Below are positions 1-36,748 of a stretch of 64,000 bases of DNA, piece by piece. Origin of the DNA: an uncultured virus (IMG/VR IMGVR_UViG_3300008111_000027) (lineage: Duplodnaviria > Heunggongvirae > Uroviricota > Caudoviricetes); IMG/VR virus record IMGVR_UViG_3300008111_000027, positions 1-64,000 of that record; one strand, given 5' to 3'. A program made the translations under genes and the position numbers. The notes beneath the pieces were generated by a model. It was not told where the DNA came from. It saw only the letters and a program-made list of their open reading frames with translations, and searched no databases. Positions within the stretch are counted from its first letter, which is position 1; each line of letters starts with the position of its first letter.

Positions 1-3000
1 TGTAACAGTATTAGTAGGTGTATTGGTAGGTGTATTGGTTGGTGTAACAGTATTCGTAGGAGTATTTGTTGGAGTATTTGTTGGACTAACAGTAGCTGCT
101 GGTGTTCTTGTTGGGGTTACGGTATTAGTTGGGGTTACAGTGTTAGTCGGAGTGTTAGTTGGTGTATTCGTTGGTGTAACGGTATTTGTTGGGGTGTTAG
201 TTGGTGTATTTGTTGGTGTTACTGTATTGGTAGGAGTATTTGTAGGACTCAATGTAGGTGTAACTGTATTGGTCGGTGTTAAAGTTGGTGTAACTGTCTT
301 TGTTGGTGTATTAGTAGGTGTCTGAGTTGGTGTAACTGTATTAGTCGGAGTATTAGTAGGCGTAACAGTGTTTGTTGGAGTATTGGTTGGGGTATTTGTA
401 GGAGTTACCGTATTGGTTGGGGTGTTTGTAGGAGTATTGGTAGGGGTGACAGTCTTGGTTGGAGTATTTGTGGGGGTAACAGTATTTGTTGGGGTAACCG
501 TATTAGTTGGTGTGTTGGTTGGAGTATTTGTTGGGGTTAGAGTTGGTGTAACAGTTTTTGTTGGTGTATTAGTTGGAGTAACGGTATTTGTTGGGGTATT
601 GGTTGGGGTATTTGTAGGAGTTACCGTATTAGTCGGGGTATTAGTAGGCGTAACAGTGTTTGTTGGAGTATTGGTTGGGGTGTTTGTAGGAGTTAAGGTA
701 GGTGTAACAGTCTTGGTTGGGGTGTTGGTTGGTGTAACTGTATTAGTAGGTGTGTTAGTTGGTGTAACTGTATTAGTAGGTGTATTTGTTGGAGTATTTG
801 TTGGGGTAACAGTATTCGTAGGAGTATTGGTCGGTGTTAATGTAGGAGTAACAGTTCTTGTTGGAGTATTTGTTGGGGTAACAGTATTCGTAGGAGTATT
901 AGTAGGTGTTAATGTAGGTGTAACAGTCTTGGTCGGAGTGTTTGTAGGAGTATTTGTTGGTGTAACAGTGTTTGTTGGTGTTACCGTGTTTGTAGGAGTA
1001 TTGGTAGGAGTGTTCGTTGGAGTATTGGTTGGTGTTAATGTAGGTGTAACAGTATTAGTAGGTGTTAATGTAGGTGTAACAGTCTTGGTTGGGGTGTTTG
1101 TAGGAGTATTTGTTGGTGTAACGGTGTTCGTAGGGGTAACTGTAGGACTCAATGTAGGGGTTACAGTATTGGTCGGAGTATTAGTAGGTGTTAATGTAGG
1201 TGTAACAGTCTTGGTTGGTGTATTGGTTGGGGTAACCGTGTTAGTTGGTGTGTTGGTGGGTGTTACTGTATTAGTAGGAGTAACTGTAGGACTCAATGTA
1301 GGAGTTACAGTCTTGGTTGGTGTATTAGTGGGTGTGTTTGTTGGTGTAACAGTATTGGTTGGGGTAACCGTGTTAGTTGGTGTGTTGGTTGGAGTATTTG
1401 TTGGGGTATTGGTTGGGGTGACTGTCTTAGTCGGTGTATTAGTTGGGGTTACTGTATTTGTTGGTGTAACCGTATTTGTTGGTGTATTTGTGGGTGTATT
1501 GGTTGGAGTTAAAGTTGGTGTTACAGTTTTTGTTGGTGTGTTGGTCGGTGTAACTGTATTTGTTGGTGTATTTGTGGGTGTATTGGTCGGTGTAACTGTA
1601 TTTGTTGGAGTATTTGTTGGGGTGTTAGTGGGTGTAACAGTATTAGTAGGAGTATTTGTGGGCGTATTGGTCGGTGTAACTGTATTTGTCGGAGTATTGG
1701 TTGGGGTATTTGTTGGTGTAACGGTGTTCGTAGGGGTAACTGTAGGACTCAATGTAGGGGTTACAGTGTTTGTAGGAGTGTTTGTGGGAGTGTTGGTTGG
1801 GGTAACTGTATTAGTAGGAGTAACTGTAGGGGTGACAGTTTTAGTAGGTGTATTAGTTGGAGTATTGGTAGGGGTTACAGTATTAGTAGGGGTATTTGTA
1901 GGAGTTAATGTAGGAGTTACAGTCTTGGTTGGGGTATTTGTTGGTGTAACGGTGTTCGTAGGGGTAACTGTAGGACTCAATGTGGGAGTCACCGTATTGG
2001 TCGGAGTATTGGTGGGGGTTACTGTATTAGTAGGAGTATTAGTAGGAGTATTGGTTGGGGTTACCGTGTTGGTCGGAGTTAAAGTTGGTGTAACAGTTTT
2101 TGTTGGTGTATTGGTTGGAGTTACAGTGTTCGTAGGGGTATTTGTTGGTGTTAGAGTTGGTGTAACAGTTTTTGTTGGTGTATTAGTAGGAGTTACGGTG
2201 TTAGTTGGAGTGTTGGTAGGTGTGTTAGTTGGTGTTACAGTGTTGGTTGGTGTATTAGTAGGTGTCTGAGTTGGTGTAACTGTCTTGGTTGGGGTATTAG
2301 TTGGCGTTACAGTATTGGTTGGGGTTACCGTATTTGTAGGAGTTACGGTATTGGTTGGAGTAACAGTATTAGTCGGCGTTACTGTGTTAGTTGGGGTGTT
2401 AGTGGGGGTAACAGTATTAGTAGGAGTAACGGAATTCGTGGGAGTGTTTGTAGGAGTGTTTGTTGGTGTTAATGTAGGTGTTACGGTTTTTGTTGGTGTA
2501 TTGGTTGGGGTTACTGTATTTGTAGGAGTATTTGTAGGAGTTAAGGTAGGTGTAACAGTATTGGTTGGGGTATTGGTAGGTGTGTTGGTCGGGGTGACTG
2601 TGTTAGTTGGTGTAACTGTATTAGTTGGTGTATTCGTAGGGGTTTGAGTTGGTGTAACAGTATTGGTTGGGGTATTTGTTGGAGTTAAAGTTGGTGTGAC
2701 AGTTTTTGTTGGTGTATTGGTAGGAGTTACGGTATTTGTAGGAGTATTAGTCGGTGTCTGAGTTGGTGTTACGGTGTTTGTTGGAGTATTGGTTGGAGTT
2801 AATGTAGGTGTTACAGTCTTGGTTGGTGTATTAGTTGGTGTTACAGTATTAGTAGGTGTAACAGTATTAGTAGGTGTAACAGTGTTTGTAGGTGTAACGG
2901 TATTGGTGGGAGTCACCGTATTAGTTGGTGTGTTAGTTGGGGTTACGGTGTTGGTTGGAGTAACGGTATTTGTTGGGGTGTTTGTAGGAGTGTTTGTTGG

Positions 3001-6000
3001 TGTTAATGTAGGTGTTACGGTTTTTGTTGGTGTATTGGTTGGTGTAACAGTATTTGTTGGTGTGTTGGTGGGTGTGTTGGTGGGTGTTACAGTATTAGTT
3101 GGGGTATTAGTAGGACTCAATGTTGGGGTAACAGTATTCGTTGGTGTTACAGTATTGGTTGGAGTGTTTGTTGGGGTATTTGTTGGGGTTACGGTATTAG
3201 TAGGGGTATTGGTTGGAGTTAATGTAGGAGTAACAGTCTTGGTTGGTGTATTAGTTGGCGTAACAGTGTTTGTTGGGGTGTTAGTTGGGGTATTTGTAGG
3301 GGTTACCGTATTGGTCGGAGTGTTGGTTGGTGTTAATGTAGGAGTAACAGTCTTGGTTGGAGTGTTTGTTGGGGTAACAGTATTGGTTGGAGTCACTGTA
3401 TTAGTTGGTGTGTTGGTCGGTGTATTTGTTGGGGTTAAAGTTGGTGTGACAGTTTTTGTTGGTGTATTGGTTGGGGTTACTGTGTTAGTAGGAGTGTTTG
3501 TAGGTGTATTAGTAGGGGTATTAGTATTAGTCGGGGTATTGGTCGGTGTAACTGTATTCGTTGGAGTAACGGTAGGAGTTAATGTAGGAGTAACAGTCTT
3601 GGTTGGTGTATTAGTAGGTGTGTTAGTAGGGGTTACCGTATTGGTTGGGGTGTTAGTCGGGGTAACTGTGTTAGTTGGTGTGTTAGTTGGTGTGTTGGTC
3701 GGAGTTACCGTATTTGTTGGAGTATTTGTAGGGGTTAAGGTAGGCGTAACAGTTCTTGTTGGAGTATTGGTCGGTGTAACTGTATTCGTTGGAGTTACAG
3801 TGTTAGTGGGGGTTACGGTATTGGTCGGCGTTACAGTGTTAGTCGGTGTTACCGTATTAGTTGGAGTATTTGTTGGCGTAACAGTGTTTGTTGGAGTTAC
3901 AGTGTTTGTGGGGGTATTGGTTGGAGTATTGGTGGGAGTCTGAGTTGGGGTGACTGTCTTAGTTGGGGTATTGGTCGGGGTAACTGTGTTGGTTGGAGTA
4001 ACGGTATTTGTTGGGGTATTGGTCGGGGTATTGGTTGGAGTTAAAGTTGGCGTAACAGTGTTTGTTGGTGTATTGGTAGGTGTTACAGTATTAGTTGGGG
4101 TATTGGTTGGAGTTAAAGTTGGTGTAACAGTTTTTGTTGGTGTATTAGTTGGCGTTACAGTATTAGTTGGTGTGTTAGTTGGTGTGTTTGTTGGGGTTAC
4201 CGTATTGGTCGGAGTTACCGTAGGACTCAATGTAGGAGTTACAGTATTAGTTGGTGTGTTGGTTGGTGTGACTGTATTCGTTGGAGTGTTAGTAGGTGTC
4301 TGAGTTGGGGTAACAGTATTTGTTGGAGTATTGGTAGGAGTATTGGTAGGGGTTACAGTATTGGTAGGAGTATTGGTAGGGGTTACAGTATTGGTAGGAG
4401 TATTCGTTGGGGTTAGAGTTGGTGTAACAGTTTTGGTAGGAGTATTAGTAGGGGTTACAGTATTTGTAGGAGTTACCGTAGGACTCAATGTGGGAGTCAC
4501 CGTATTAGTTGGTGTATTGGTTGGGGTTACGGTGTTGGTTGGAGTGTTTGTAGGTGTATTAGTTGGAGTAACAGTATTTGTAGGTGTATTAGTCGGGGTA
4601 TTGGTTGGTGTTACGGTGTTGGTTGGGGTTAAAGTTGGTGTGACAGTTTTTGTTGGTGTATTGGTTGGCGTAACAGTGTTTGTCGGAGTATTAGTTGGGG
4701 TGTTGGTTGGTGTATTAGTTGGAGTTACAGTGTTGGTTGGAGTGTTAGTTGGTGTTACGGTATTGGTTGGGGTTACTGTGTTTGTAGGAGTATTGGTCGG
4801 TGTATTCGTTGGGGTTAGAGTTGGTGTAACAGTTTTGGTAGGAGTATTAGTAGGAGTTATAGTATTCGTTGGTGTGTTGGTCGGTGTAACAGTATTAGTT
4901 GGGGTGTTGGTTGGGGTGTTGGTTGGAGTAACAGTATTAGTTGGAGTATTAGTTGGGGTGTTGGTTGGAGTAACAGTGTTTGTTGGGGTTACCGTAGGGC
5001 TCAATGTGGGAGTTACAGTTTTAGTAGGGGTGTTTGTTGGAGTTACGGTGTTGGTTGGGGTATTGGTTGGTGTGTTAGTTGGTGTAACTGTATTAGTGGG
5101 AGTCACTGTAGGGCTCAATGTTGGAGTTACAGTGTTGGTTGGGGTGTTAGTTGGTGTATTGGTTGGTGTAACTGTATTCGTTGGAGTGTTTGTAGGAGTG
5201 TTGGTTGGGGTTACAGTATTAGTTGGTGTGTTGGTTGGAGTTAATGTAGGTGTAACGGTTCTTGTGGGGGTGTTGGTAGGGGTTACGGTATTAGTTGGAG
5301 TGTTTGTTGGGGTATTTGTTGGGGTTACGGTATTAGTTGGAGTGTTTGTTGGGGTATTTGTTGGGGTTACGGTATTAGTAGGGGTATTGGTTGGGGTATT
5401 TGTTGGGGTTACGGTATTAGTAGGGGTATTGGTTGGAGTTAATGTAGGTGTAACGGTTCTTGTGGGGGTGCTGGTAGGGGTTACGGTGTTAGTTGGAGTG
5501 TTGGTAGGTGTGTTAGTTGGCGTAACGGTGTTAGTTGGAGTCACAGTCGGACTCAATGTAGGTGTTACTGTATTTGTTGGGGTGTTGGTAGGGGTATTTG
5601 TAGGTGTTACGGTGTTGGTAGGTGTAACTGTTGGACTCAATGTAGGAGTCACAGTATTTGTTGGTGTATTTGTAGGTGTGTTAGTTGGGGTAACGGTATT
5701 AGTTGGAGTGTTGGTTGGTGTATTTGTTGGTGTTACTGTGTTAGTAGGGGTATTTGTGGGAGTATTTGTAGGTGTTACGGTGTTGGTAGGTGTAACTGTT
5801 GGACTCAATGTGGGAGTCACAGTTTTAGTAGGAGTATTTGTAGGTGTTACGGTGTTGGTAGGTGTGTTTGTTGGGGTATTGGTTGGAGTTACCGTATTCG
5901 TCGGAGTATTAGTAGGGGTGTTAGTTGGAGTTACAGTGTTTGTTGGTGTGTTTGTAGGGGTATTGGTAGGTGTTACTGTGTTAGTAGGAGTATTTGTAGG

Positions 6001-9000
6001 AGTATTGGTTGGTGTTACGGTATTTGTAGGAGTTACAGTTGGTGTTAATGTAGGAGTCACCGTGTTTGTTGGGGTATTGGTGGGAGTATTTGTAGGGGTT
6101 ACCGTATTTGTCGGTGTATTGGTTGGTGTTAAAGTAGGTGTAACCGTTCTTGTTGGAGTGTTAGTTGGTGTAACCGTATTTGTAGGAGTATTAGTAGGGG
6201 TGTTGGTAGGGGTTACAGTATTCGTAGGGGTATTGGTTGGTGTATTCGTGGGTGTGACAGTATTAGTTGGTGTTACGGTTGGACTCAGTGTAGGGGTTAC
6301 TGTATTGGTTGGAGTGTTAGTTGGGGTATTTGTAGGTGTAACTGTATTTGTTGGGGTGTTTGTAGGTGTATTAGTTGGTGTAACTGTATTAGTTGGTGTA
6401 TTCGTAGGGGTTTGAGTTGGTGTAACAGTATTTGTAGGAGTCACAGTCGGACTCAATGTGGGAGTCACGGTCTTAGTCGGTGTGTTAGTAGGGGTAACTG
6501 TGTTCGTAGGAGTTACCGTAGGACTCAATGTAGGGGTGACAGTGTTGGTTGGAGTATTGGTTGGTGTGTTGGTTGGTGTTACGGTGTTTGTAGGAGTTAC
6601 TGTATTAGTAGGAGTGTTCGTAGGGGTATTGGTAGGGGTTACTGTGTTAGTTGGAGTGTTAGTAGGTGTATTGGTAGGAGTAACTGTATTGGTTGGTGTA
6701 TTTGTGGGTGTAACAGTGTTAGTTGGTGTGTTAGTTGGTGTGTTGGTAGGAGTTACGGTGTTAGTTGGAGTATTTGTAGGTGTCTGAGTTGGTGTAACTG
6801 TATTCGTAGGGGTTACAGTCGGACTCAGTGTAGGTGTTACTGTGTTAGTCGGGGTAACTGTAGGTGTATTTGTTGGAGTTACAGTGTTGGTTGGGGTGTT
6901 GGTTGGAGTTACGGTGTTCGTTGGAGTATTGGTTGGTGTATTAGTTGGGGTTACTGTATTAGTTGGAGTATTGGTTGGGGTATTGGTTGGAGTTACAGTC
7001 TTGGTTGGTGTGTTGGTTGGTGTTACGGTGTTTGTTGGAGTATTGGTTGGAGTGTTTGTGGGGGTGTTGGTTGGTGTTACGGTGTTTGTTGGGGTGACTG
7101 TATTGGTTGGAGTGTTTGTTGGGGTGTTGGTGGGAGTATTTGTAGGGGTTACCGTATTTGTCGGTGTATTGGTTGGTGTTAAAGTAGGTGTAACCGTTCT
7201 TGTTGGAGTTACAGTCGGACTCAATGTTGGAGTTACTGTATTGGTTGGTGTTAGTGTCGGGCTTAATGTTGGTGTAACAGTACTAGTTGGGGTATTGGTT
7301 GGGGTGTTGGTTGGAGTTACCGTATTGGTTGGTGTATTCGTCGGTGTATTTGTAGGTGTAACAGTATTCGTAGGTGTTACAGTTGGAGTATTGGTTGGGG
7401 TTACTGTGTTAGTTGGAGTATTGGTGGGGGTATTGGTTGGAGTAACAGTATTTGTTGGTGTCACAGTCGGACTCAATGTTGGTGTAACAGTTTTTGTTGG
7501 GGTATTTGTCGGTGTCTGAGTTGGTGTTACGGTATTGGTTGGCGTATTGGTAGGAGTATTGGTTGGCGTATTTGTTGGAGTTACGGTATTAGTTGGTGTG
7601 ACTGTATTGGTTGGGGTGTTAGTCGGCGTGTTCGTAGGGGTGTTGGTTGGTGTTACCGTATTTGTTGGTGTATTAGTAGGTGTGTTAGTAGGTGTTACTG
7701 TATTTGTAGGCGTGTTCGTGGGAGTCTGAGTTGGTGTTACAGTGTTAGTAGGAGTGTTAGTTGGCGTGTTAGTGGGTGTAACAGTATTAGTAGGAGTCAC
7801 CGTTGGACTCAATGTAGGTGTAACAGTATTGGTTGGTGTGTTGGTCGGAGTGTTGGTAGGAGTTACAGTATTAGTAGGAGTCACCGTTGGACTCAATGTA
7901 GGTGTAACTGTATTTGTTGGGGTATTTGTTGGGGTATTGGTAGGAGTTACTGTATTAGTCGGAGTGTTGGTCGGGGTGTTGGTTGGAGTAACAGTGTTGG
8001 TGGGAGTATTGGTTGGAGTGTTAGTTGGTGTATTTGTTGGGGTTACGGTGTTGGTTGGAGATACCGTATTTGTAGGAGTATTGGTTGGAGTGTTAGTTGG
8101 GGTTAGTGTTGGGGTTACGGTGTTTGTTGGGGTATTGGTAGGTGTATTGGTTGGTGTAACGGTATTTGTAGGAGTAACAGTGTTGGTTGGAGTATTGGTA
8201 GGACTTAATGTTGGCGTATTAGTTGGGGTTACGGTGCTGGTTGGAGTCACTGTTGGACTCAATGTAGGTGTAACTGTATTTGTTGGTGTGTTGGTAGGAG
8301 TGTTTGTAGGAGTCACAGTATTAGTAGGAGTCACAGTTGGACTTAATGTGGGAGTTACTGTATTAGTTGGAGTGTTGGTAGGTGTGTTAGTTGGGGTTAC
8401 TGTATTTGTCGGGGTATTGGTTGGGGTATTTGTTGGTGTAACGGTGTTGGTCGGAGTGTTTGTGGGAGTATTTGTAGGAGTTACTGTGTTCGTAGGAGTT
8501 ACTGTAGGACTCAATGTTGGTGTTACTGTATTTGTTGGGGTGTTAGTAGGAGTGTTTGTTGGAGTCACCGTGTTTGTTGGGGTATTGGTGGGAGTATTTG
8601 TTGGTGTAACAGTATTTGTTGGGGTGTTAGTTGGGGTGTTGGTAGGAGTTACCGTATTGGTTGGTGTGTTAGTTGGGGTGTTGGTAGGAGTTACCGTATT
8701 GGTTGGTGTGTTAGTAGGAGTGTTTGTTGGTGTAACAGTATTGGTTGGTGTGTTAGTAGGAGTGTTTGTTGGTGTAACAGTATTGGTAGGAGTTACAGTT
8801 GGGGTGTTGGTTGGAGTTACAGTATTAGTAGGCGTATTGGTAGGAGTATTAGTTGGAGTTACTGTATTTGTAGAAGTATTGGTAGGAGTATTGGTAGGGG
8901 TGACAGTATTGGTGGGCGTATTGGTAGGAGTATTGGTTGGGGTGACTGTATTTGTTGGAGTATTTGTTGGGGTGTTAGTTGGAGTTACTGTATTTGTAGG

Positions 9001-12000
9001 AGTATTGGTAGGAGTATTGGTAGGGGTGACAGTATTGGTGGGGGTGTTTGTAGGAGTATTGGTAGGGGTGACAGTATTGGTTGGAGTATTAGTTGGGGTG
9101 ACTGTATTTGTTGGAGTATTTGTTGGGGTGTTGGTAGGGGTGTTGGTAGGAGTTACAGTATTGGTTGGAGTAACTGTATTGGTTGGAGTGTTTGTCGGGG
9201 TATTTGTAGGTGTCAGTGTCGGTGTTACGGTATTTGTTGGAGTATTAGTAGGAGTGTTAGTTGGTGTAACCGTATTTGTTGGTGTATTTGTGGGTGTATT
9301 GGTAGGAGTAACTGTATTGGTAGCCGTATTGGTAGGAGTGTTGGTTGGTGTATTAGTTGGTGTGACTGTATTGGTCGGAGTTACCGTCGGTGTATTTGTT
9401 GGGGTTACGGTATTGGTAGGGGTTACTGTTGGTGTATTCGTAGGCGTGTTTGTTGGGGTTACGGTATTTGTTGGAGTATTAGTGGGGGTATTCGTAGGTG
9501 TATTGGTTGGTGTTACGGTGTTAGTTGGGGTATTTGTAGGGGTTTGAGTTGGTGTAACGGTATTGGTTGGAGTCACTGTTGGACTCAATGTTGGCGTTAC
9601 CGTATTGGTAGGAGTATTAGTTGGCGTATTGGTAGGAGTAACTGTGTTGGTTGGGGTGTTGGTAGGAGTGTTAGTTGGTGTTACAGTATTAGTTGGTGTG
9701 TTAGTTGGTGTGTTTGTTGGTGTTACGGTGTTCGTAGGGGTGTTAGTAGGTGTCAGTGTTGGGGATACCGTATTGGTAGGAGTGTTAGTTGGTGTATTTG
9801 TAGGGGTTACCGTATTGGTAGGAGTATTAGTTGGTGTATTTGTAGGAGTAGCAGTATTAGTAGGGGTATTTGTTGGAGTATTGGTCGGTGTTACAGTGTT
9901 TGTTGGAGTGTTGGTTGGTGTTACAGTGTTTGTTGGGGTGTTTGTCGGAGTGTTGGTTGGGGTATTCGTTGGTGTTACAGTATTTGTAGGGGTTACGGTG
10001 TTGGTTGGAGTATTGGTGGGGCTTAATGTTGGGGTATTTGTAGGGGTTACGGTGTTGGTTGGGGTCGCTGTTGGAGTCAATGTAGGTGTAACTGTATTGG
10101 TTGGGGTATTGGTAGGAGTATTGGTTGGGGTAACAGTATTGGTAGGAGTAACTGTTGGACTCAATGTAGGAGTAACTGTATTGGTAGGAGTGTTTGTTGG
10201 TGTATTGGTTGGTGTTACAGTATTAGTTGGAGTATTTGTTGGAGTTAAAGTTGGTGTAACAGTTTTTGTTGGTGTATTAGTTGGGGTGTTAGTAGGAGTT
10301 ACTGTATTGGTTGGTGTGTTTGTGGGAGTATTGGTTAATGTAACGGATGGTGTTACAGTGTTGGTTGGTGTTACCGTTGGAGTATTGGTGGGTGTTGGGG
10401 TGCTCGTTGGAGTTGGTGAGGGTAACATTGTATAATCAATGTCACAAGAAGGTGCTGGTGTTGGTGAAACCGTCACAGTTACACTTGGTGTATTTGTTGG
10501 AGTTACAGTATTGGTTGGAGTTACAGTATTTGTCGGGGTGTTTGTGGGGGTAACTGTATTGGTTGGAGTCACTGTTGGACTCAATGTTGGTGTTACAGTG
10601 TTAGTAGGAGTGTTGGTCGGCGTGTTAGTTGGAGTATTGGTTGGTGTTACGGTGTTAGTTGGTGTTACCGTAGGACTCAATGTAGGAGTCACAGTATTGG
10701 TAGGTGTATTGGTTGGAGTATTGGTTGGTGTTACGGTGTTAGTTGGTGTTACCGTAGGACTCAATGTAGGAGTCACAGTATTCGTTGGTGTGTTTGTAGG
10801 TGTATTAGTCGGAGTTACGGTGTTGGTTGGAGTTACGGTATTTGTGGGAGTGTTTGTAGGAGTGTTGGTAGGAGTGTTTGTTGGAGTTACGGTGTTGGTT
10901 GGGGTATTGGTTGGGGTATTGGTTGGTGTAACGGTATTTGTAGGAGTATTTGTAGGTGTCTGAGTTGGAGTTACTGTATTCGTCGGTGTGTTTGTTGGGG
11001 TGTTGGTAGGAGTTACGGTATTGGTAGGACTTAATGTTGGAGTGTTAGTTGGAGTATTTGTTGGAGTTACTGTGTTGGTTGGAGTATTCGTAGGTGTAAC
11101 CGTATTTGTTGGTGTATTAGTTGGGGTGTTTGTAGGTGTATTAGTTGGTGTCACAGTTTCTGTTGGAGTCACTGTAACAGTATTGGTTGGTGTGACTGTA
11201 TTGGTAGGGGTTACGGTGTTGGTTGGTGTAAGTGTTGGTGTTTCTGTGGGAGTATTTGTTGGTGTGTTGGTGGGGGTATTTGTTGGTGTTTCGGTTGGTG
11301 TATTTGTAGGTGTATTAGTTGGAGCTACCGTATTTGTTGGAGTTACAGTTGGAGTGTTAGTTGGGGTAACCGTTGGTGTAACAGTATTGGTAGGAGTATT
11401 GGTTGGGGTTTGAGTTGGTGTAACGGTTGCAGTATTTGTTGGTGTTAGGGTAGGTGTTTCAGTTTGTGTTACAGTGGGTGTATTGGTTGGAGTTACAGTA
11501 TTGGTTGGAGTTACAGTTGAGGTATTAGTCGGAGTGTTAGTTGGTGTTATGGTGTTGGTTGGGGTATTGGTAGGTGTTTCGGTAGGGGTAACGGTTGGAC
11601 TCAGTGTTGGTGTTACTGTGTTAGTCGGAGTATTAGTTGGGGTGTTGGTTGGTGTTTCGGTAGGGGTAACGGTTAGGGTTACGGTGTTGGTTGGAGTATT
11701 GGTTGGTGTTTCGGTTGGTGTTTCGGTTGGTGTATTAGTTGGGGTAACAGTATTGGTTGGAGTTACAGTTGGGGTAACAGTTGGGGTAACAGTTGGAGTT
11801 ACGGTGTTGGTTGGGGTATTGGTTGGTGTTTCGGTTGGTGTTTCGGTTGGTGTATTAGTTGGGGTAACAGTATTTGTTGGGGTGTTAGTGGGTGTTTCAG
11901 TCGGTGTATTAGTTGGGGTATTGGTTGGTGTTTCGGTAGGGGTTACTGTATGAGTTGGTGTATTGGTAGGTGTTTCGGTAGGGGTTACCGTATTTGTTGG

Positions 12001-12546
12001 AGTTACAGTTGGAGTTTCGGTAGGGGTAACTGTATTTGTTGGGGTGTTGGTAGGTGTTTCAGTTGGTGTATTGGTTGGGGTTACCGTATTTGTTGGGGTT
12101 ACAGTTGGAGTTTCGGTCGGAGTAACAGTTGGTGTCTCGGTTGGTGTAACTGTATTCGTAGGAGTTACAGTAGGTGTGTTGGCTGGTGATTCGGTTGGAG
12201 TTACTGTGTTAGTTGGGGTAACTGTAGGAGTTTCAGTTGGGGTAACCGTTGGGGTATTTGTTGGGGTATTGGTTGGAGTTACTGTGTTAGTTGGAGTAAC
12301 TGTAGGAGTTTCAGTTGGGGTAACTGTAGGCTCGTTTGTTGGAGTATTAGTCGGAGTTACGGTATTCGTAGGAGTATTTGTTGGAGTGATAGTATTGGTT
12401 GGGGTAACAGTAGGTGTTTTTGTAACCGTAGGTGTAACAGTAGGGGTTTTGGTAACTGTTGGGGTTGGGGTATTTGAAGTAAAGGTTGTTGGTGTTGGTG
12501 TTAATGATGGTGTAAGTGTTGGTGAAGGTGTAGGTGAAGGTGTAGG
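1..12546. repeat. Degenerate coding tandem repeat of 12/18-bp units ([10 protein letters not shown]) with scrambled third codon positions
   Basis: Extreme G+T-rich + strand. Exact local duplications include a 30-bp unit at 4331-4404 and an 83-bp identity between 6077-6159 and 7127-7209. Confidence 0.95.
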
Positions 12547-12741
12547 GCAAGGAATCTCAGCCACACAAGTTTTATCAAGTGACGGAAAATAAACTGAGTA
12601 AGTACCTAAGTAGTAGTTTGTGTCGTAATAATATGGCATCACGACAGTACCTAAATTCAAGGTACCGCCAGTACAAGGATAAAATGTGATAACACCAATT
12701 TCACCATCAAAATTACCTGTGTTTATTTTTATTAATGCCAT
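1..12741 (-). CDS. Giant Pro/Thr repeat (mucin-like) protein, >4,247 aa, 3' end outside window
   Basis: ATG at 12741-12739 gives [65 protein letters not shown], then ([12 protein letters not shown])n. All + strand Val/Gly shadow ORFs lie in one frame (start mod 3 = 2), the antisense offset of this frame. Their TGA stops read CAG/CAA (Gln) on the minus strand. No stop seen down to base 1. Confidence 0.93.
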
Positions 12742-12781
12742 TTAAATCTACAGTCTTATCTATATCTATTTTTATTATAAA

Positions 12782-12810
12782 AATATACTCATTTATTCGG
12801 GTATTGTCAA
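12782..12810 (-). promoter_or_regulatory. Sigma70-like promoter upstream of the giant repeat gene
   Basis: Minus strand reads TTGACA-N17-TATATT about 40 nt upstream of the ATG. Confidence 0.55.
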
Positions 12811-12831
12811 CGTCTATTTTTACAGTTTTTA

Positions 12832-15800
12832 TCATGGACAATCAAAAATGGAACTACTTAATTCCTCATTAGTTGGTTCTGTAGGACAATGGTTGGCATC
12901 GATATAATATTGACCGAGGTTGAATCCAATATTTGGATGTTTATCGTATTTGTGTTTCATCAGAATTTGGTCGCTGTTATTTCCATTGAAAACAACAACA
13001 AATTCATCAGTTAGTGGTGTATTGTCTAATTCAAAATTTAGATTGAAGTATAATCCTGTATCGCAATAATTTAAGTCGACATCAATTACTTCTATGGTTT
13101 TACCATATTTGTTTATTAAATAATCCCCATGGTTATATAATTCTTTCGGATGGTCACAACAAGGTTCAATAAAATCTGTTGGTTTTTTTTGTAATTCCTC
13201 TGGGAACCTATCGTCAAAAAAGTAAACACTATTTGTAGGTGTTCCAAAATTTTCAATGATTCTATTTGTATAAACTCTTAGTTGTGTTGTTGGTAAAACT
13301 TCAAAAACTTCATAAGTATTATTTTGGGTTAATCCTGTAATGATACTTTTCTTGATTGATGCTAAACATTCAATGTCTGTAATTTCAAGTTTTTGATAGT
13401 TGTACGTAAATGAATACCCTGATACAGGTCCATTCACAATTTGTTGGTGACTATATTCTGTACATTGTTTGTAAGATGCAGATAAAACATATTCCCCAAC
13501 ATTTAAATCACAAACACTTTTACCACTTATCGTACCACCACTAATATAACTTTCAATATTGTCATCTGTAGTTTGGTTGTCAATGGTTAATCCGCTATCA
13601 ACTACTAAAACTATAGAGTCACATTTTAAACCATAGTTAAAGTTTGATTTGTATTCAACTTTTGGTTGTATTGTGTAACCTGTGTAATTGTCACAATATG
13701 TTGCACCTGAAACAACTGAAATTGGGGATGATATTGTTCCTTGGTAACCAACAATACTAAATAATTCTACGTGACTTTTTCCTGATGGTGTTGGACATGG
13801 GTCATGTTCAATTTTGGGTTGTAGACCTTCAATTTTGAATTTTACTTCTTTATTTGCTGCATCTACAATATTAAAATCTATTACATCATTTTCTGAAAAA
13901 CCAGTTAATTTATATACACAATCACTAACTTTTTGAATGTAAACATCCGCATTTTCATTTGTTCCACTTACACAATTAGCATAAATGTTAAATGGCCATG
14001 TTGAACCTTGTTGGATACCTGTTTTGTATCCAATTACTTCAAAAAACACATCACTCACTAATGTACATCCACTGTTTGAGTCGCAATAAACGGTATTATC
14101 AGTATAAACTTTAACACTGATTCCATTTGTATTTTTTGTGATTTTGTAATCGGCATCAAATCGATAATCAAAATAGTCGACCACTGAACATTCGTTTGGA
14201 CCTAATTTTACGGATGAAAACTTAACTTTTTCAACACCATTTTCATCAGTGTATGTTGTGTATTTTATTAATGGTATTGTTTCTGAAAAATATGTTTGGC
14301 CTGTGGTTCCCGTGAAAGCAGAATAGGGTTCATACCCTGCACTATTTCTTGTAATAGTTACGTCATCAATCAATACAGATAACGCCGATAACCATAGTTC
14401 TTTAATTTTAGTAACATCAGGTTCAAGATAATCTTTATAATCACATATTAAGGAAAGATTTACCGTATCACCACTGGTGACCCCACTTGTACATCCTGTA
14501 AATGGTTGTGCATCAAATAATTTTGCACTGTTTGAAGTGTTACTTGTTCCACTAACAATCACATACATAGAGGATGTTAGACCCGTGTAGTCGGCCCCAC
14601 CATAAACTGTTCCATCAATTTCAATTACAGGATAGTAAGTAACACCTGTAAGGTTTATTAAACCTCTAAAATTATTTTCTTCACCTAAAATATTTTCTAA
14701 ATCTTCCTCAATTACATTTTCAAAATCAGGGTATAGTTCCTCAATAAATTCTAATGGTTGACAATCATATCTATATTGATATTTTGGTCTACCAAACACG
14801 TTATTTTCTATTAAATTACCGCCGGTCCATTGAGTGGTTGATGGTACTAATTGTTCAACTAATTGTGGCCAATAAGGTGATAATTTATTAACAAATTCAA
14901 TAACATTTATTTGATTATATGGTGTAAAACCTGTTGTTTGTGATATATAATCTCTATAGACATCTTCTAATTGAATATAATTTTTTTTGTAACGAATTTT
15001 GTTAGAATTTGTTACAAGTCCATGAATAAAGGTGTCTAAAAATTCAGCAAAAGTTTTACCTGTTTGGGGTAATAAAGTATTTGTACCAAAACTTATTAAT
15101 AATTCTCTACTTTGTCTAAAGATATCATAATCTATACCTCGTGATGGTGAGATATAAATTCCAATGTTTTTTCTATTTAAAATTAATAAATAATCATCCT
15201 CAATTGGTTTTCCGTCTTTATTATCGACCGCGGAAACCAATTCATAACCGGTATCTAAACCTGGTAATGTTCTATATAAATCAAAGTATTCTTCTCCGTA
15301 TGTGTAGTTTTTATTCTTTGTTTTAATTGTTTTGGTGTTACCCGTTAGTATTGAGTTACTACTGTCTAAAACGAGTGGAGTACGGTGTGATAATGTAATA
15401 TCGTACCATCCTGAACCTTTACCAAAGAATATGTTTTCAGTTTCGTTATATGCTCTTCTTGGTAGTCCAGTTTTTTCGTCTACAGGGTAACCCTCTCTGT
15501 CAAATGTTGTTGACGCTGAGTAGTAAACTTTAGAATATGTGAAACCTGTACTATCAAAGGTGGCGTAAGAATATCTTTTGTTACCTTGAATCGCATCGTA
15601 TATGTCTTGTTGTAAATTAAAACTAGATGGAATTGACGTTACTTTATAAATGTATTCATCAATCCTAATCAAAGGCTCGGGTGCCCCCAAAAATTTTAAA
15701 AAGAAATCAATAGAGGATTTTGTTCCTTTTGATTTATAAATGTGAGCAAGATTTATAAGTAATCTTCGATAAAACTCATACTCAGCTTCAATTAAATTCG

Positions 15801-17076
15801 TACCGGTTGATACTCCGTCATAATTTGATTGTAATCTTGAATATAAAACATCATTTAGACTATTTTCATCGAATAAATTTAATGTTGATAAACCTAAATT
15901 TTCTGCTAAGTTTTTTAAAAGTACATCAGGTAAATTATTAATTCCATCATAACTTACGTTTCTCATATAAGCTATGTTGTCTATGTATTTCTTTACACTA
16001 TCAAAGCTTTGACCATATAATTGAAATACACTTTCAGCTCTTTTATCTTCGGTGTCAAATTCAAATAACTGTGGTGCGGCTAAAAATCTAACCATTAGAT
16101 TAGATTTATACACATCTATCTCATCAGCAATATCTTTTAATTTACCAACATATAAATCGTAATCAAAACCGGTTATTTGTATGTTATAACCATCATTAGA
16201 TATTGGCCAAGTTATTACAACATCAACCAAAGATGTTTTTGAATTGTCTTGAACATCTCTCGGTACTTTAAATGATGAAGTATAAATTGGATTTGTTTCT
16301 CTATTTAAAAGTGATTCCTCTAAATCGTCTAACCCTTCGAAAAATTCTTCAACTAAACCATCGTTTGGTCTTATCAATAAATTTTCTGAATATGTTGAAC
16401 CAGTAAATGGTTGTCCATATACCTTTAAGTAAATTCTATTGTTTGTATTCGGTTCGCTGTATTCTAAAATTGGATATGGTGTGTTATTTGTAACAACAAC
16501 ATATTTTGTATAAGACGAATAAAAATTTCTTAATTCGTTTTCAGTTTCTGGTTTAACTACTGAATTAGGCTCAACAAAAACTAAATCAAAAGGATTGAAT
16601 ATTTTACTTCTTTCGATGTAAAAAGTTGTGGTATTGGTGCTATCGTTATATGTTATTCCACTAGCACTGTAATTAGAAACACCTATAGGACTGTCCGATA
16701 AGATTGAAATTCCACCCGGAAACTTGTTTATAATTCTAGTTAATGAAACTAAAATTCTACTTGTTAACGAACCAAATAAAGATTTATCGGCATATTTTTT
16801 GTTGCCCTTAAACCTTACTTCGTCAGTTCTCTTTTTTCTTGGTGTTGCTGATGTTGTTTGAATACCCTCAACCTCTTTTAACGTATCTAATGTTAAAAAT
16901 TGAGAGAATGGGTTACTCGTAAAATTTTTAGAATCTTTGTCAGGGATAGACTTATCAAGCGCAAATACGGTGTTGGTTAGTGCAGATGAACCATCAGTTA
17001 TCTGTCTACCAACTAAGAAATCATTAAATGTTTCCGCTCCGCTTGACGCTTGACTCGGTACTTTTCTCCTTGCCAT
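12832..17076 (-). CDS. Large baseplate wedge/tail structural protein with P2 gpI / T4 gp7-like core
   Basis: 1414 aa. Motifs LPDVLLKNLAENLG and YRRLLINLAHIYKSKGTKSSIDFFLKFLG are typical of baseplate wedge proteins. Cys-rich beta C-terminal region; lies in the baseplate operon. Confidence 0.65.
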   Translation of the reverse strand: MARRKVPSQASSGAETFNDFLVGRQITDGSSALTNTVFALDKSIPDKDSKNFTSNPFSQFLTLDTLKEVEGIQTTSATPRKKRTDEVRFKGNKKYADKSLFGSLTSRILVSLTRIINKFPGGISILSDSPIGVSNYSASGITYNDSTNTTTFYIERSKIFNPFDLVFVEPNSVVKPETENELRNFYSSYTKYVVVTNNTPYPILEYSEPNTNNRIYLKVYGQPFTGSTYSENLLIRPNDGLVEEFFEGLDDLEESLLNRETNPIYTSSFKVPRDVQDNSKTSLVDVVITWPISNDGYNIQITGFDYDLYVGKLKDIADEIDVYKSNLMVRFLAAPQLFEFDTEDKRAESVFQLYGQSFDSVKKYIDNIAYMRNVSYDGINNLPDVLLKNLAENLGLSTLNLFDENSLNDVLYSRLQSNYDGVSTGTNLIEAEYEFYRRLLINLAHIYKSKGTKSSIDFFLKFLGAPEPLIRIDEYIYKVTSIPSSFNLQQDIYDAIQGNKRYSYATFDSTGFTYSKVYYSASTTFDREGYPVDEKTGLPRRAYNETENIFFGKGSGWYDITLSHRTPLVLDSSNSILTGNTKTIKTKNKNYTYGEEYFDLYRTLPGLDTGYELVSAVDNKDGKPIEDDYLLILNRKNIGIYISPSRGIDYDIFRQSRELLISFGTNTLLPQTGKTFAEFLDTFIHGLVTNSNKIRYKKNYIQLEDVYRDYISQTTGFTPYNQINVIEFVNKLSPYWPQLVEQLVPSTTQWTGGNLIENNVFGRPKYQYRYDCQPLEFIEELYPDFENVIEEDLENILGEENNFRGLINLTGVTYYPVIEIDGTVYGGADYTGLTSSMYVIVSGTSNTSNSAKLFDAQPFTGCTSGVTSGDTVNLSLICDYKDYLEPDVTKIKELWLSALSVLIDDVTITRNSAGYEPYSAFTGTTGQTYFSETIPLIKYTTYTDENGVEKVKFSSVKLGPNECSVVDYFDYRFDADYKITKNTNGISVKVYTDNTVYCDSNSGCTLVSDVFFEVIGYKTGIQQGSTWPFNIYANCVSGTNENADVYIQKVSDCVYKLTGFSENDVIDFNIVDAANKEVKFKIEGLQPKIEHDPCPTPSGKSHVELFSIVGYQGTISSPISVVSGATYCDNYTGYTIQPKVEYKSNFNYGLKCDSIVLVVDSGLTIDNQTTDDNIESYISGGTISGKSVCDLNVGEYVLSASYKQCTEYSHQQIVNGPVSGYSFTYNYQKLEITDIECLASIKKSIITGLTQNNTYEVFEVLPTTQLRVYTNRIIENFGTPTNSVYFFDDRFPEELQKKPTDFIEPCCDHPKELYNHGDYLINKYGKTIEVIDVDLNYCDTGLYFNLNFELDNTPLTDEFVVVFNGNNSDQILMKHKYDKHPNIGFNLGQYYIDANHCPTEPTNEELSSSIFDCP

Positions 17077-25955: not shown

Positions 25956-27788
25956 TTAGAATGTAGTCGTTCCTAATGTTTTTACTCTAACTTTTATATC
26001 TTTCTGAGGAAATCTTATTTGATATATTTGGTTAGATTTCATATAGATAGTCATATCGGATTGAGCAATTTCTTTTGTGGTTGGGTCAATATATGATTGT
26101 AACACTTCAGAAGATGAATATTCTCCACCTACGTTATTGAAAACTCTTATATCGACAGCGTTTACCACTCCATTTACTTCACCTATTGTTTTATATAAAT
26201 CACCAACAAATAATGGGTCACCCATTTTTCTTTTTTCAATTGAAAAATAACTAACAGTATCCTCGATAATAGTTTTAACAATCTCTGTTTGGTTACCATT
26301 TTTATCAATAACAACGTCAATCTCTAGTGTGAAATCAACCACTTCACCGCTTTGAACTTCTAAAAAGTCATTAACCATTCGGTACTCGGCTAAGTAAGAT
26401 AAAATGTTGTTTTTTAATGTGTTTGAAACAGTATCAATAAGATTACCATTCTCATCATATGACAATAATTTAATTTTTATTTTATTGTCTTCTTCCATCA
26501 CGTTTACCTTAGCGGGAGCCCCATATGTTGATGGCATTGTCTCAATTAAAGATTTATAATCATTAAGAGTTACCGCCCTATTTTGTGCAGAGAAGTTATA
26601 TGCTATCATGTTTCTAACTTCTTCAATTGTGGGTTGGTCCGCACCTCCAACAGCTGGTGTTACGTTGGTTACGGTTAAAGAATTTTGTACTTGAGTGTTC
26701 GTTGATGAGTTAGGTCCATTAATAGAAAATTCAACATTATCTACACTTGTAATAATATCAATACCGAGATTACTATCCTTACCTCCTCCAATTCTATATT
26801 TTATGAATAACGTTGTATTTGATTTCGGTAAAGCACCTAATGATAGGTTATTCAAATACGTTCCAAGACTTACTCTTAAAGTACCTTGGTTATAGTTGTC
26901 CAAATTATCCAATGGATTAACATTACCAGAACCAAATGTTACCGAAAAATAATTTTCGGGAGTATATTCTGTAATAAATTTATTTGTAACTGGAACGTAT
27001 GTTCCCGATATGAAATTATCACTATCAGATGCCGATGTTGGGTCGGGCACAAATACTTTATCTTGTATTAATGATTTTACTTCGTACCATTTATTTTCAG
27101 AACTTAAAAATTCAGAGTTAGTTGGATTATTTACAAAGTTTGTTCCCTCTTTATGAATTACTCCACTCACCCCTAATATGTTTTGTTCAGGTAAGAATAT
27201 TTTTAAGAAAGGTTTTTGGTCAACTTCTGTTATAACTTTTCTATATATTCTTGTTACACCATTTACAACAGCTTCTCTTTTTACAATTGAGTATGATATG
27301 AGTCTATTATTACCATCAAAATTTGGGATTTTTAATCTGTTTGGTTCACCTCTTTTATTGAAGGGATTTGAGAAATCAATATCGTCGATGGTTTCAAAAA
27401 CTTGTCCCCCACCCGATACTTGTGCACCTGATTTTATAGTCCCCAAATAACGCTCATCTTCTTTATCTCCTCTAACAGGTACTTGTATTGTAAAATCACA
27501 CAAAGAAACCGATGGTCTATTACCTGGTATTCTCATACCATATGTTTTGGCAATATGATACAATGATTGTCTTTGTTGTGCAAAATCTAGCATTGTCTCT
27601 TGCCAAACCCTATCAATGTGAAAATGTAAATTGTCTGTCACAGCGGCATTTAAATCCAATAAAACAGAATAAATTGATGCGTCATTTGTATTCTTAATCA
27701 AATCGGGATAATATTCCCTTGTGAGATTAACTAGTTCCTGTCTTAAACTCGCAAAGTCTCTGACGGCGTATGATATTTTTTTAGCCAT
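25956..27788 (-). CDS. Baseplate wedge subunit (T4 gp6 / gpJ-like)
   Basis: 610 aa. Motifs RDFASLRQEL, YRIGGGKDSN, AVGGAD and QNRAVTLNDY; follows gp25. Confidence 0.9.
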   Translation of the reverse strand: MAKKISYAVRDFASLRQELVNLTREYYPDLIKNTNDASIYSVLLDLNAAVTDNLHFHIDRVWQETMLDFAQQRQSLYHIAKTYGMRIPGNRPSVSLCDFTIQVPVRGDKEDERYLGTIKSGAQVSGGGQVFETIDDIDFSNPFNKRGEPNRLKIPNFDGNNRLISYSIVKREAVVNGVTRIYRKVITEVDQKPFLKIFLPEQNILGVSGVIHKEGTNFVNNPTNSEFLSSENKWYEVKSLIQDKVFVPDPTSASDSDNFISGTYVPVTNKFITEYTPENYFSVTFGSGNVNPLDNLDNYNQGTLRVSLGTYLNNLSLGALPKSNTTLFIKYRIGGGKDSNLGIDIITSVDNVEFSINGPNSSTNTQVQNSLTVTNVTPAVGGADQPTIEEVRNMIAYNFSAQNRAVTLNDYKSLIETMPSTYGAPAKVNVMEEDNKIKIKLLSYDENGNLIDTVSNTLKNNILSYLAEYRMVNDFLEVQSGEVVDFTLEIDVVIDKNGNQTEIVKTIIEDTVSYFSIEKRKMGDPLFVGDLYKTIGEVNGVVNAVDIRVFNNVGGEYSSSEVLQSYIDPTTKEIAQSDMTIYMKSNQIYQIRFPQKDIKVRVKTLGTTTF

Positions 27789-27789
27789 A

Positions 27790-28242
27790 TTATATGTTAA
27801 TAATTATAAAATCGGACGAAACAAAAGGTTCGTTATTTATGTCATAGTCAATTCGAACTTTTGCGGTATATGGTTTGGTTGAATAATCAGAAACTCTAAA
27901 CAATCTTGAGTCCTCATCTTCTTGTGGGCTCATAGATTCTTCAGGGTCTTGGTCAGCGGGTGTAACTCTAATTGATTTTATTTCTAAATTAGGTATGTAT
28001 AATTTCACCGCAGTTCTTATTTCATCTTCTATCTGACCCCATGTTACAGCGTCATTTGGTTCAAAAATAAATTCATATAATCTAGTCCCAAAATCAGGTA
28101 AATAATATCTTGAACCCTTTCTTGTTAATAACAAGTGAATCAAGTTTGCACGAATCTCTCTCTCAGGGGTTTCGGTCATAACCAAAAAATCACCCTTAGG
28201 ACTAATTCTGAATGGAAAATCTATACCATATGTAATCGCCAT
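27790..28242 (-). CDS. Baseplate wedge / sheath initiator (T4 gp25 / gpW-like)
   Basis: 150 aa. LLLTRKGSRYYLPDFGTRLYEFIFEP signature. Confidence 0.92.
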   Translation of the reverse strand: MAITYGIDFPFRISPKGDFLVMTETPEREIRANLIHLLLTRKGSRYYLPDFGTRLYEFIFEPNDAVTWGQIEDEIRTAVKLYIPNLEIKSIRVTPADQDPEESMSPQEDEDSRLFRVSDYSTKPYTAKVRIDYDINNEPFVSSDFIIINI

Positions 28243-30825: not shown

Positions 30826-30832
30826 AATCTAA

Positions 30833-31810
30833 TTAAAAATCTATATCTTCAAATGATGTATCCATATCTTCAATGGAAACGTTATTATTCACACCAGCTT
30901 TTTGATATTCAGCAACTCTTTTTTCAAAGAAATTAGTCTTACCTTGAAGAGCAATATTTTGCATGAAATCAAATGGATTTTCAACATTGTAGACCTTTGA
31001 ACAATTTAATGACATTAATAGTCTATCGGTCACAAATTCCAAATATTGAGACATCAAATCTGAATTCATACCAATTAGTTTAACAGGTAGTGCCTCTAAA
31101 ATAAATTCTTTTTCAATCTCTAAAGCTCCACAGATAATGTCTTTAATTCTCTTCTCACTTAATTTATTTTCAATATGGTGATTAAACAAATGACAAGCAA
31201 AGTCACAGTGCATTCCTTCATCTCTTGAAATAAGCTCATTTGAAAAGGTTAAACCCGGCATTAAACCACGTTTTTTGAGCCAGAAAATAGAACAGAATGA
31301 GCCAGAAAAGAAAATACCCTCAACAGCAGCAAAGGCAATAAGTCTTTCAACGAAGGTACCCTTTTCAATATACTTTAACGCCCATTCCGCCTTTTTCTTA
31401 ACAGCAGGGATTGTGTCAATTGCATTAAATAATCTACCTTGTTCTTGTTTATCCTTGATATATGTATCAATCAACAAAGAATAAGTTTCACTGTGAATAT
31501 TTTCCATCATGATTTGGAAACCATAAAACATTTTAGCTTCCGTATATTGTACCGCATTCACAAAATTCATTGCAATGTTTTCATTTACAATACCATCCGA
31601 AGCGGCGAAAAATGCTAATACGTTTTTAACAAAATGTTGTTCATCTTCATTTAGTTTGTTTTCCCAATCATAAATGTCTTGAGCTAAATCAATTTCTTCA
31701 GCAGTCCAAAAACATGCTTCTTGTTGTTTGTAAAGTTTCCAAATGTCGTGGTGTTCGATTGGAAAAAGGACAAAACGTCCTGGATTTTCTTTCAAAATCT
31801 TCTCTGTCAT
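30833..31810 (-). CDS. nrdB: Ribonucleoside-diphosphate reductase class Ia beta subunit
   Basis: [29 protein letters not shown] (radical Tyr), [22 protein letters not shown]. Confidence 0.98.
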
Positions 31811-31824
31811 GGTGATAATAATTA

Positions 31825-33201: not shown

Positions 33202-33215
33202 AGTTTTTTATTTTT

Positions 33216-34674: not shown

Positions 34675-34705
34675 TAATCATCACTCTTATAGGGTTAAAC
34701 AAAAA

Positions 34706-35704: not shown

Positions 35705-35730
35705 TGTATATTTTCTATTGTTTTTAATTA

Positions 35731-35775: not shown

Positions 35776-35782
35776 ATTTTAA

Positions 35783-36716: not shown

Positions 36717-36748
36717 CTCTTTTTTTTTAAAATTGTTTTGGGAAGGGG

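Follow-up and report, generated by a model that had tools for sequence, protein, structure and literature searches.

Giant Thr/Pro reading frame of the window

The window analyzed here, that is, the whole stretch of 64,000 nucleotides (nt), is the first 64 kb of a 125.3-kb viral contig (IMG/VR record IMGVR_UViG_3300008111_000027) with an estimated completeness of 41%. Its first part is occupied by a giant open reading frame (ORF) on the minus strand (window 1..12741), which starts with ATG and contains 4,247 codons with no stop before base 1; the ORF is truncated in the window because the contig ends at base 1. A previous sequence-only reading had reported one open minus-strand frame with a Thr/Pro tract that has not ended at base 1, and this description held, the frame being cut only by the contig end. 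Translation revealed a head of about 60 residues that contains Cys and Tyr, followed by a region in which Thr is found at nearly every second residue. The head module with the start codon (residues 1 to about 63), a six-stranded beta-sandwich in an AlphaFold2 model, lies at 12553..12741 on the minus strand. The first 4,184 residues of a (Thr-x)n tract, which has 4,757 residues in the complete gene, are encoded at 1..12552 of the same strand, and the gene continues past base 1.

The window part of the tract consists of Thr (48.7%), Pro (21.1%), Asn (15.8%) and Val (8.8%), and the whole Thr/Pro/Asn/Val tract of 4,757 amino acids (aa) has a similar content of Thr (48%) and Pro (21%). It is uncharged and hydrophilic, its longest unbroken run comprises 184 T-x dipeptides, and Pro appears at about every fifth residue. 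Only one short island of 10 residues departs from the Pro/Thr (PT) pattern (residues 765-774; 10420..10449, minus strand, as read from the sequence), about 700 residues into the tract. The dominant period is 14 residues (42 nt, 116 copies), and periods vary among 10, 14, 24, 28, 34 and 38 residues because blocks of 4 and 6 residues are mixed. The guanine plus cytosine (GC) content of the giant-ORF region was 0.42-0.45 with a GC skew of +0.70 to +0.77, compared with a GC content of 0.29-0.35 and a skew near 0 elsewhere in the window. The other five frames of the full tract are interrupted by 16 to 727 stops and stay open for 703 codons at most, and across 200 mononucleotide shuffles the longest open frame had 334 codons. 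The giant open frame is far beyond chance.

Complete gene in related assemblies

A search with the 1,414-aa protein encoded just upstream of the giant gene identified 67 related viral loci, 25 of which hold the head. Of the five longer head-bearing records, three have an open frame of 5,472 aa, one has 4,267 aa, and the remaining one, which represents a lineage related at 97%, has 2,940 aa. The sequence-only reading had suggested looking for a stop codon and C-terminal domains beyond the contig end, and both were found in these other assemblies. The complete coding sequence (CDS) of 16,416 nt (5,472 aa) was DNA-identical in G001 (288 kb, 92% complete), G003 and G004 by direct comparison, and the 12,741 nt of the window are an exact prefix of it in L074, L075 and L076. 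A length of 16,416 nt was also obtained by coordinate subtraction in three further records (L007/L099, L008/L096 and L012/L106). Full length was thereby observed in 6 of the 10 records holding both gene ends.

Several observations would fit the view that the tract is an assembly artefact or a decaying repeat that is not translated. Of the 25 related loci, 10 or more break off within the giant gene, as does the window's own contig, and the full-length 5,472-aa protein was absent from a collection of 5.8 billion proteins. Moreover, in the remaining four of the 10 records holding both ends the gene is shortened and out of frame, lacking 253, 268, 310 and 430 nt (L010/L105, L011/L101, L017/L097 and L016/L107, respectively), none a multiple of three. 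G002, which alone among these four was inspected, follows the window sequence to its last base and then shows sequence 253 nt further on, and a frameshift with a stop after 20 codons results from this jump. On the other hand, the CDS is identical in three records and has the same length by coordinates in three more, and every 127-mer of it is unique; at the DNA level, the tract is no perfect repeat. Exact repeats in the gene measure 126 nt at most, and the longest of them (101-126 nt) occupy CDS 12,627-13,030, the very place at which the contig of the window ends. We read the short out-of-frame forms and the end of the window's contig as assembler behaviour or joins at the repeat spot, and G002 looks like an end-to-end join of two contigs. 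It should be noted that continuity across the repeat at CDS 12.6-13.0 kb comes from assemblies only.

Sixteen public sequencing runs contain 83% or more of the words sampled from a 4-kb stretch that spans the repeat point, and all holders together represent 13 studies. For two metatranscriptome runs, the share of these words is 44% and 26%, which is only consistent with transcription, as DNA may be carried over into RNA runs. Among giant proteins of 3,009-9,576 aa, no other one with the same head was found, nor was the protein itself, and this negative result is weak evidence.

Selection on the tract and its orthologues

At a repeat lag of 42 nt, the mismatch frequency within the tract was 0.19, 0.19 and 0.65 at codon positions 1, 2 and 3, respectively, and the third bases of Thr codons agreed with a frequency of 0.29-0.33, which is the chance level (0.30 expected if independent). 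These values bear out the earlier proposal that third codon positions are scrambled under protein-level selection. Codon use in the tract matches that of the other genes of the phage. Throughout the tract, DNA segments share 76-87% identity with their best paralogous counterparts, with slightly greater similarity near the C-terminal end; since segment identity is similar throughout, no sharply younger zone of the tract could be recognized.

Two orthologues have tracts of 2,539 aa (S/T/P/V) and 2,001 aa (T/P/S/V/I), whose composition differs from that of the window gene. In both, the head, the Cys domain that follows the tract (63 aa) and the C-terminal domain are retained in a single open frame. 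Among five orthologues, which are 34-43% identical in the C-terminal domain, 14 Cys residues of this domain are invariant. Conservation of the C-terminal domain behind 14 kb of tract shows that translation covers the whole frame. On the basis of these sequence comparisons, we consider the giant gene to be real, under protein-level selection and read to its end. The open frame with saturated synonymous sites and the conserved in-frame C-terminal domains further argue against an artefact or an untranslated repeat, a view that is already largely refuted and to which we would give hardly any weight.

The orthologues also bear on the conformation of the tract. A regular beta-solenoid with Thr-lined faces, comparable to the TxT arrays of ice-binding proteins, might be suggested by the strict T-x alternation and the dominant 14-residue period. 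However, the periods vary, the orthologues swap the pattern for an S/T/P/V one of different period, and stacked strands would poorly accommodate a Pro at about every fifth position. A solenoid is thus very unlikely.

Domain architecture and predicted structure

The 5,472-aa protein begins with the head (residues 1-59, 59 aa), which is followed by the main tract (residues 60-4816, 4,757 aa), Cys domain A (residues 4817-4880, 64 aa), a PT linker (residues 4881-5008, 128 aa), a double Cys domain B (residues about 5009-5166, about 158 aa), a second PT linker (residues 5167-5321, 155 aa) and a C-terminal Cys domain (residues about 5316-5472, about 157 aa, overlapping the linker boundary given by the mask). 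The three Cys-rich regions after the tract thus comprise four modules. Residues 2-63 of the head were modelled by AlphaFold2 (36 sequences) as a six-stranded beta-sandwich with a mean predicted local distance difference test score (pLDDT) of 91.2. This part contains no hydrophobic leader, in agreement with the earlier statement that a signal peptide is absent. The alternative location at the cell surface, which had been offered together with the virion, is unlikely for a phage gene without an export signal.

Neither the head nor the C-terminal domain has a Pfam or NCBIfam model, and no Pfam match was found for the head or the C-terminal 672 aa at E<=1. Sequence searches with the C-terminal domain gave no match among longer proteins and one near-identical fragment among proteins of similar length. 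In the ESM Atlas, the C-terminal domain matched viral hypothetical proteins only (best score 0.86), and the sole match of the C-terminal region in a PDB sequence search was the PT linker in 8zvk_A.

By arithmetic, the three PT segments (5,040 residues at 0.31 nm each) have a contour length of about 1.56 micrometre, whereas polymer physics suggests that the mean span of a flexible chain of this kind would be roughly 0.05-0.2 micrometre depending on its stiffness. The chain of over 1 micrometre proposed by the sequence-only reading therefore stands as a contour (about 1.5 micrometre), while the span expected of a flexible chain would be far shorter.

Family of the head module

In a search of 1.84 billion representative proteins, the head matched 293 clusters at E<=1e-3 and 72 at E<=1e-10. 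It was located at the N-terminus in 145 of the 150 best matches, and among the five exceptions are two long proteins whose many weak repeats resemble ordinary Ig-like ones. A PT/PS linker directly follows the head in 108 of the 129 listed members that have 120 aa or more; its median length is 42 aa and its maximum 227 aa. Beyond the linker, members carry DUF285, weak PKD, PA14 and F5/8-C matches, and many Cys-rich modules. A paralogous head, of the kind that the sequence-only reading had proposed to look for, does occur in the same phage. It belongs to a 308-aa paralogue encoded at L079 295-1221 (G001 52194-53120), a position that corresponds to about 68.1 kb of the window's own contig and lies beyond the window, and it shares 51% identity with the head of the giant protein. 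This paralogue continues with a PS/PT linker of 82 aa and ends in a region that resembles F5/8 type C domains at a score short of the curated cut-off (E 3.1e-5). The head was not found by tblastn in any of 50,697 phage records, XacN1 included.

Phage fibres that use a common attachment site combine a conserved N-terminal module with distal ends that can be exchanged. Because the head is such a module, it would be the anchor of the giant protein and the C-terminus its working end. Compared with other members, the giant tract is an extreme expansion, by a factor of about 100, of the usual linker of about 40 aa.

These features are relevant to the idea that the protein forms a coat or brush on the particle for shielding, colloidal stability or drag, in which the Cys modules only fold or cross-link. 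An uncharged, hydrophilic tract would suit this role, and mycobacteriophage virions carry glycan shields (as cited in PMC12619734). Yet other members of the head family bear adhesin-type domains at their far ends (DUF285, and weakly PKD, PA14 and F5/8-C), and the C-terminal modules of the giant protein are conserved across orthologues. We consider a pure coat or brush improbable.

Putative glycosylation enzymes and their distribution

To characterize enzymes that could modify the tract, 165 ORFs of at least 150 aa in G001 and 30 window ORFs were scanned, with ORFs below 150 aa and nine ORFs crossing piece boundaries set aside. Two adjacent proteins of family PF11397 were found in G001 (E 3e-72 and 7e-48; 244.4 and 164.3 bits compared with a cut-off of 21). 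The pair adjoins a HAD phosphatase, TylF-type methyltransferases and a nucleotidyl transferase, and a separate cluster in G001 comprises an epimerase/dehydratase, two FkbM methyltransferases, four GT2 glycosyltransferases and a UDP-N-acetylglucosamine 2-epimerase; one more GT2 is encoded elsewhere. No match to a GT4-type family was found among the scanned ORFs. The phage PF11397 protein has no leader and contains a D-x-H motif, as judged by reading of its sequence, and a PDB sequence search with the phage glycosyltransferase gave nothing. G002 and the sister lineage G005 carry the pair as well; two fragments that do not reach this part of the genome lack it. In 14 control genomes, PF11397 was not detected. 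As a side observation, a protein resembling the RuBisCO large chain (PF00016, E 1.1e-31) is encoded within the sugar-modification cluster after the PF11397 pair (L093 12967-14193, G001 272967-274193).

We take PF11397 to correspond to the CAZy family GT60. One enzyme of the GT60 family adds N-acetylglucosamine to Thr of Trypanosoma cruzi mucins, and another member, Gnt1, adds it to hydroxyproline of Skp1 (PMC9472816, PMC6939170, PMC3769586). A T. cruzi glycoprotein carries a heavily glycosylated tract of similar style, PTVTPTP... (PMC3630849).

Homologues of the enzyme were found in only 4 of 50,697 phage records (45-48% identity), all of them jumbo phages, namely the Xanthomonas phages XacN1 and Xoo-sp13 and the Stenotrophomonas phages CM1 and RAS14. 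Three of these (XacN1, Xoo-sp13 and RAS14; CM1 was left out) and G005 were scanned for the motif TPTxTPT, together with five large phages that lack the enzyme. All enzyme-bearing genomes contained such sites (51 in XacN1, 51 in Xoo-sp13, 22 in RAS14 and 28 in the incomplete G005), whereas each of the five others contained none; a reversed-pattern control gave 0 in every case. Enzyme presence thus tracks TPTxTPT tracts (4/4 with the enzyme versus 0/5 without), a small sample with a complete contrast. In XacN1, the sites occur in linkers of 8-24 residues, which belong to a paralogous series (ORF232-237), to three of four large proteins encoded beside a tail gene (ORF369, 370 and 372) and to a 2,823-aa protein. 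The XacN1 homologue (ORF334) is 47.8% identical to the phage PF11397 enzyme. It was named a glycosyltransferase, and the legend of Supplementary Figure S4 in the same report mentions 'at least two glycoproteins' in XacN1 virions by Schiff staining, bands that the available text does not tie to proteins (PMC5852040).

The two GT60-type enzymes, the sugar-pathway genes of the genome and the association of the enzymes with TPTxTPT tracts give indirect support to a mucin-like nature of the tract, which remains a prediction from sequence. A different view is that the tract is a bare, unglycosylated entropic spacer on the particle and that the glycosyltransferases act on different targets, such as DNA, the host envelope or further virion proteins. 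A bare spacer would agree with the location of the PF11397 genes away from the giant gene, with the PT linkers of six or more additional ORFs of G001, and with the fact that phage glycosyltransferases often modify DNA (PMC12619734). What speaks against it is that the enzyme family is known for polypeptide acceptors and that its presence follows that of the tracts, as described above. We regard the bare spacer as unlikely, though deserving some weight.

Genomic setting of the giant gene

The phage is an uncultured jumbo myovirus from freshwater whose genes for head, tail and baseplate are T4-like; G001 encodes a T4-type portal, a gp23-type capsid protein and a terminase. By its sheath, the nearest cultured phage is a Microcystis phage (33% identity), and a DNA search with the giant-gene neighbourhood against cultured phages gave no match. 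In the window, the baseplate wedge genes lie at 25956..28242 on the minus strand and encode a gp6/Baseplate_J-like protein (610 aa) and a gp25-like protein (150 aa), with matches to GPW_gp25 (E 1e-14), Baseplate_J (E 4.5e-4), phrog_6 (E 1.7e-22) and phrog_261 (E 4.3e-19). The minus-strand run has the order gp25-like gene, gp6-like gene, five genes without a family, the gene for the 1,414-aa protein and, last, the giant gene, as the sequence-only reading had recognized in placing the giant gene at the end of the baseplate genes. The 1,414-aa neighbour (12832..17076, minus strand; 67 related loci) is a conserved syntenic partner with no family match in Pfam, PHROG and NCBIfam-type searches, and in each of the 25 loci with a head, the head gene comes after it. 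The genes for sheath, tube and hub are found further upstream, those for tube and hub at window 51291-52525. A tail tape-measure protein, which would be helical and have its gene between those of the tube or chaperone and that of the baseplate hub, was considered for the giant gene and given little credit, as the gene lies after the wedge genes and far from the tube and hub genes, and 70% of its composition is Thr and Pro.

This setting matters for another possibility, namely that the protein is made and stays outside the infectious particle, as a lysis-released matrix, a decoy, a protection for progeny or an intracellular scaffold. Virion membership is deduced from genes, Cys-rich modules would oxidise only after lysis, and mucin-like polymers can form gels. 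Against this possibility, the gene closes the baseplate run in 25 of 25 related loci holding the head, and a conserved N-terminal module with variable cargo recalls the pattern of phage fibres. A product outside the particle therefore seems rather unlikely.

A match to a sigma-70-like promoter (TTGACA, 17-nt spacer, TATATT; 11/12) is located 41 nt upstream of the ATG (12782..12810, minus strand). It is a consensus match only: the scan gave one site in the region, compared with a mean of 2.9 in shuffles of the same region. The T4 late-promoter motif TATAAATA was not enriched (5 matches versus 10.3 expected).

Directly after the giant gene, G001 encodes three Cys-rich PT-linked proteins of 854, 282 and 973 aa, followed by replication genes. 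The three consist of small Cys-rich modules joined by PT linkers (L074 16613-19000, G001 124412-131189) and had no family match. Another PT-linked protein is encoded in the window just upstream of the sheath gene: an 844-aa ORF (56281..58815, minus strand) with an N-terminal domain, a PT/PS linker of about 127 aa (57358..57738) and a DUF5122 beta-propeller (E 5.6e-82). Between the two baseplate blocks, genes for ribonucleotide reductase, helicase, exonuclease, UvsX-like and gp32-like proteins are inserted (window 28393-37123, minus strand).

An ORF of G001 (L080 6674-8587) ends in a C-terminal sorting domain of type IX secretion (E 3.2e-8). Together with the DUF5122 propeller, this domain gives a hint of a Bacteroidota host; the sorting domain also hints at a phage protein exported by host machinery. 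G001 (L080, L087 and L088) further encodes a ClpB-like ATPase, ClpP, a sigma-70-type factor and glutamine synthetase, the last of which is also a trait of freshwater 'moraphages' (PMC12619734). The window's own contig carries 25 tRNA genes at 114.8-125.3 kb, outside the window, and a transfer-messenger RNA (tmRNA) gene at its end. The array includes Thr(UGU), Pro(UGG), Asn(GUU) and Val(UAC), corresponding to the four main residues of the tract. The idea that the rest of the giant gene lies at this other contig end was ruled out, as that end holds the tRNA array and the tmRNA gene.

Comparison with known systems

Animal mucins, such as MUC2 and MUC5, have PTS tandem-repeat domains interspersed with small Cys-rich domains. 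The phage protein resembles them in having a Pro/Thr tract thousands of residues long with codon-diverse, imperfect repeats, in small Cys-rich modules that flank or interrupt the PT tract (in the phage, three regions after the main tract), and in a polypeptide-type glycosyltransferase encoded in the same genome. Unlike mucins, it would be made in the bacterial cytoplasm, with neither signal peptide nor secretory pathway, and it shows no homology to VWD, CysD or SEA domains (no Pfam match). Its tract has a strict T-x alternation with Asn and Val, and its glycosylation is predicted only.

The serine-rich-repeat adhesins of Gram-positive bacteria (Fap1, GspB and PsrP) offer a second parallel. Both have a hydroxy amino acid at every second residue over thousands of residues and a comparable size, and in both a stalk would hold a binding region off the surface and dedicated enzymes would glycosylate it in the cytoplasm, the phage side of this likeness being a prediction. 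In contrast with the adhesins, the phage residue is Thr with Pro rather than Ser, accessory Sec signal and LPXTG are lacking, the C-terminus consists of Cys-rich modules and is the presumed binding end, and the enzyme family is PF11397, not GtfA/B. The build thus works like that of a mucin or a serine-rich-repeat adhesin, and the protein is a member of neither, because the signals, anchors and domains of those families are lacking.

Pro-Thr linker boxes are also known from cellulases and modular glycoside hydrolases (for example, those of Cellulomonas fimi), where they have 20-100 residues and belong to secreted enzymes. They share with the phage tract the use of PT sequence as an extended, O-glycosylated spacer between folded modules, again predicted for the phage, whereas their length and their occurrence in secreted enzymes set them apart. 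Among phages, XacN1 is similar in its PF11397 homologue, its 51 TPTxTPT sites and the glycoproteins in its virions (PMC5852040). It differs in that its linkers have 8-24 residues rather than thousands and that the head module was not found in it. With the known fibres and whiskers of phages (T4 gp12, gp34-37 and fibritin), the giant gene shares its place at the end of the baseplate module and a conserved N-terminal module with a variable distal part; unlike theirs, its shaft consists of a low-complexity thread in place of a trimeric beta-helix or coiled coil. Searches of Pfam, NCBIfam and PHROG gave no match to fibre families, and the fold searches returned generic beta-sandwich entries only.

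Proposed function and its implications

In our opinion, the best explanation is a particle-borne, glycosylated, flexible, mucin-like tether with an adhesive end, produced from a real gene that is translated to its end; we would put the probability of this reading at about 0.5. The Ig-like beta-sandwich head would most likely be a common plug that fixes modular proteins to one particle site, because the same module starts hundreds of modular phage-type proteins. The 4,757-aa tract would most likely be a flexible, extended thread, whose Thr residues are most likely O-glycosylated in the cytoplasm by the phage's own GT60-type polypeptide glycosyltransferases, and the three Cys-rich beta regions (four modules) would most likely form an adhesive tip. 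With a contour of about 1.5 micrometre, such a mucin-like tether could extend the distance over which the virion first meets host cells or particles, and its cost might be modest for a jumbo phage if few copies are carried. Virion location, glycosylation, binding in host capture and benefit are what we infer here, the protein being known from genes alone.

Besides the short records, the assembly-based continuity across the repeat and the possible carry-over of DNA mentioned above, several points weigh against this tether. The fold of the head matches only generic Ig/FN3-like structures; their Z values form a flat list and reach 6.3, and Foldseek gave nothing for the head at E<=1e-3. The model of the C-terminal domain (all-beta, two-part) is of moderate quality (pLDDT 78, 5 sequences), and no fold relative was found for it (Z up to 3.9, generic beta-sandwich entries); its binding role is argued from architecture only. 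The assignment of PF11397 to GT60 is presumed. The PF11397 genes are located about 145 kb from the giant gene, and the other PT-linker proteins of the phage could be their targets. Finally, the association between enzyme and tracts comprises four positive and five negative genomes, and the negatives were chosen as the nearest sheath matches.

A wider formulation would hold that a 40-residue linker has turned into a phage mucin, that the Ig-like plug is a universal socket for hundreds of adhesin cargos, and that the O-glycosylation system is shared with cultured Xanthomonas and Stenotrophomonas jumbo phages. On this view, the giant protein, a single-chain thread, would be without precedent as a mucin-type appendage in bacteriophages and would rank with the longest proteins that phages make. 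We put it forward tentatively, as an idea that is more doubtful than secure.

Literature searches returned no description of a giant Thr/Pro phage protein, and the words 'threonine' and 'proline' do not occur in the paper on freshwater jumbo 'moraphages' (PMC12619734). Such genes are systematically under-reported, because the gene breaks assemblies and its full-length product is absent from the 5.8-billion protein collection. The head module represents an unnamed domain family with hundreds of members. If the tether reading is true, the giant protein would provide a second, independent case of glycosylation of phage virion proteins, by an enzyme family otherwise known from protists. Besides rigid trimeric fibres, phages would then have disordered lines, coated with sugar and many times the length of the particle, to reach their hosts, and encounter rates in dilute waters would have to be estimated anew.

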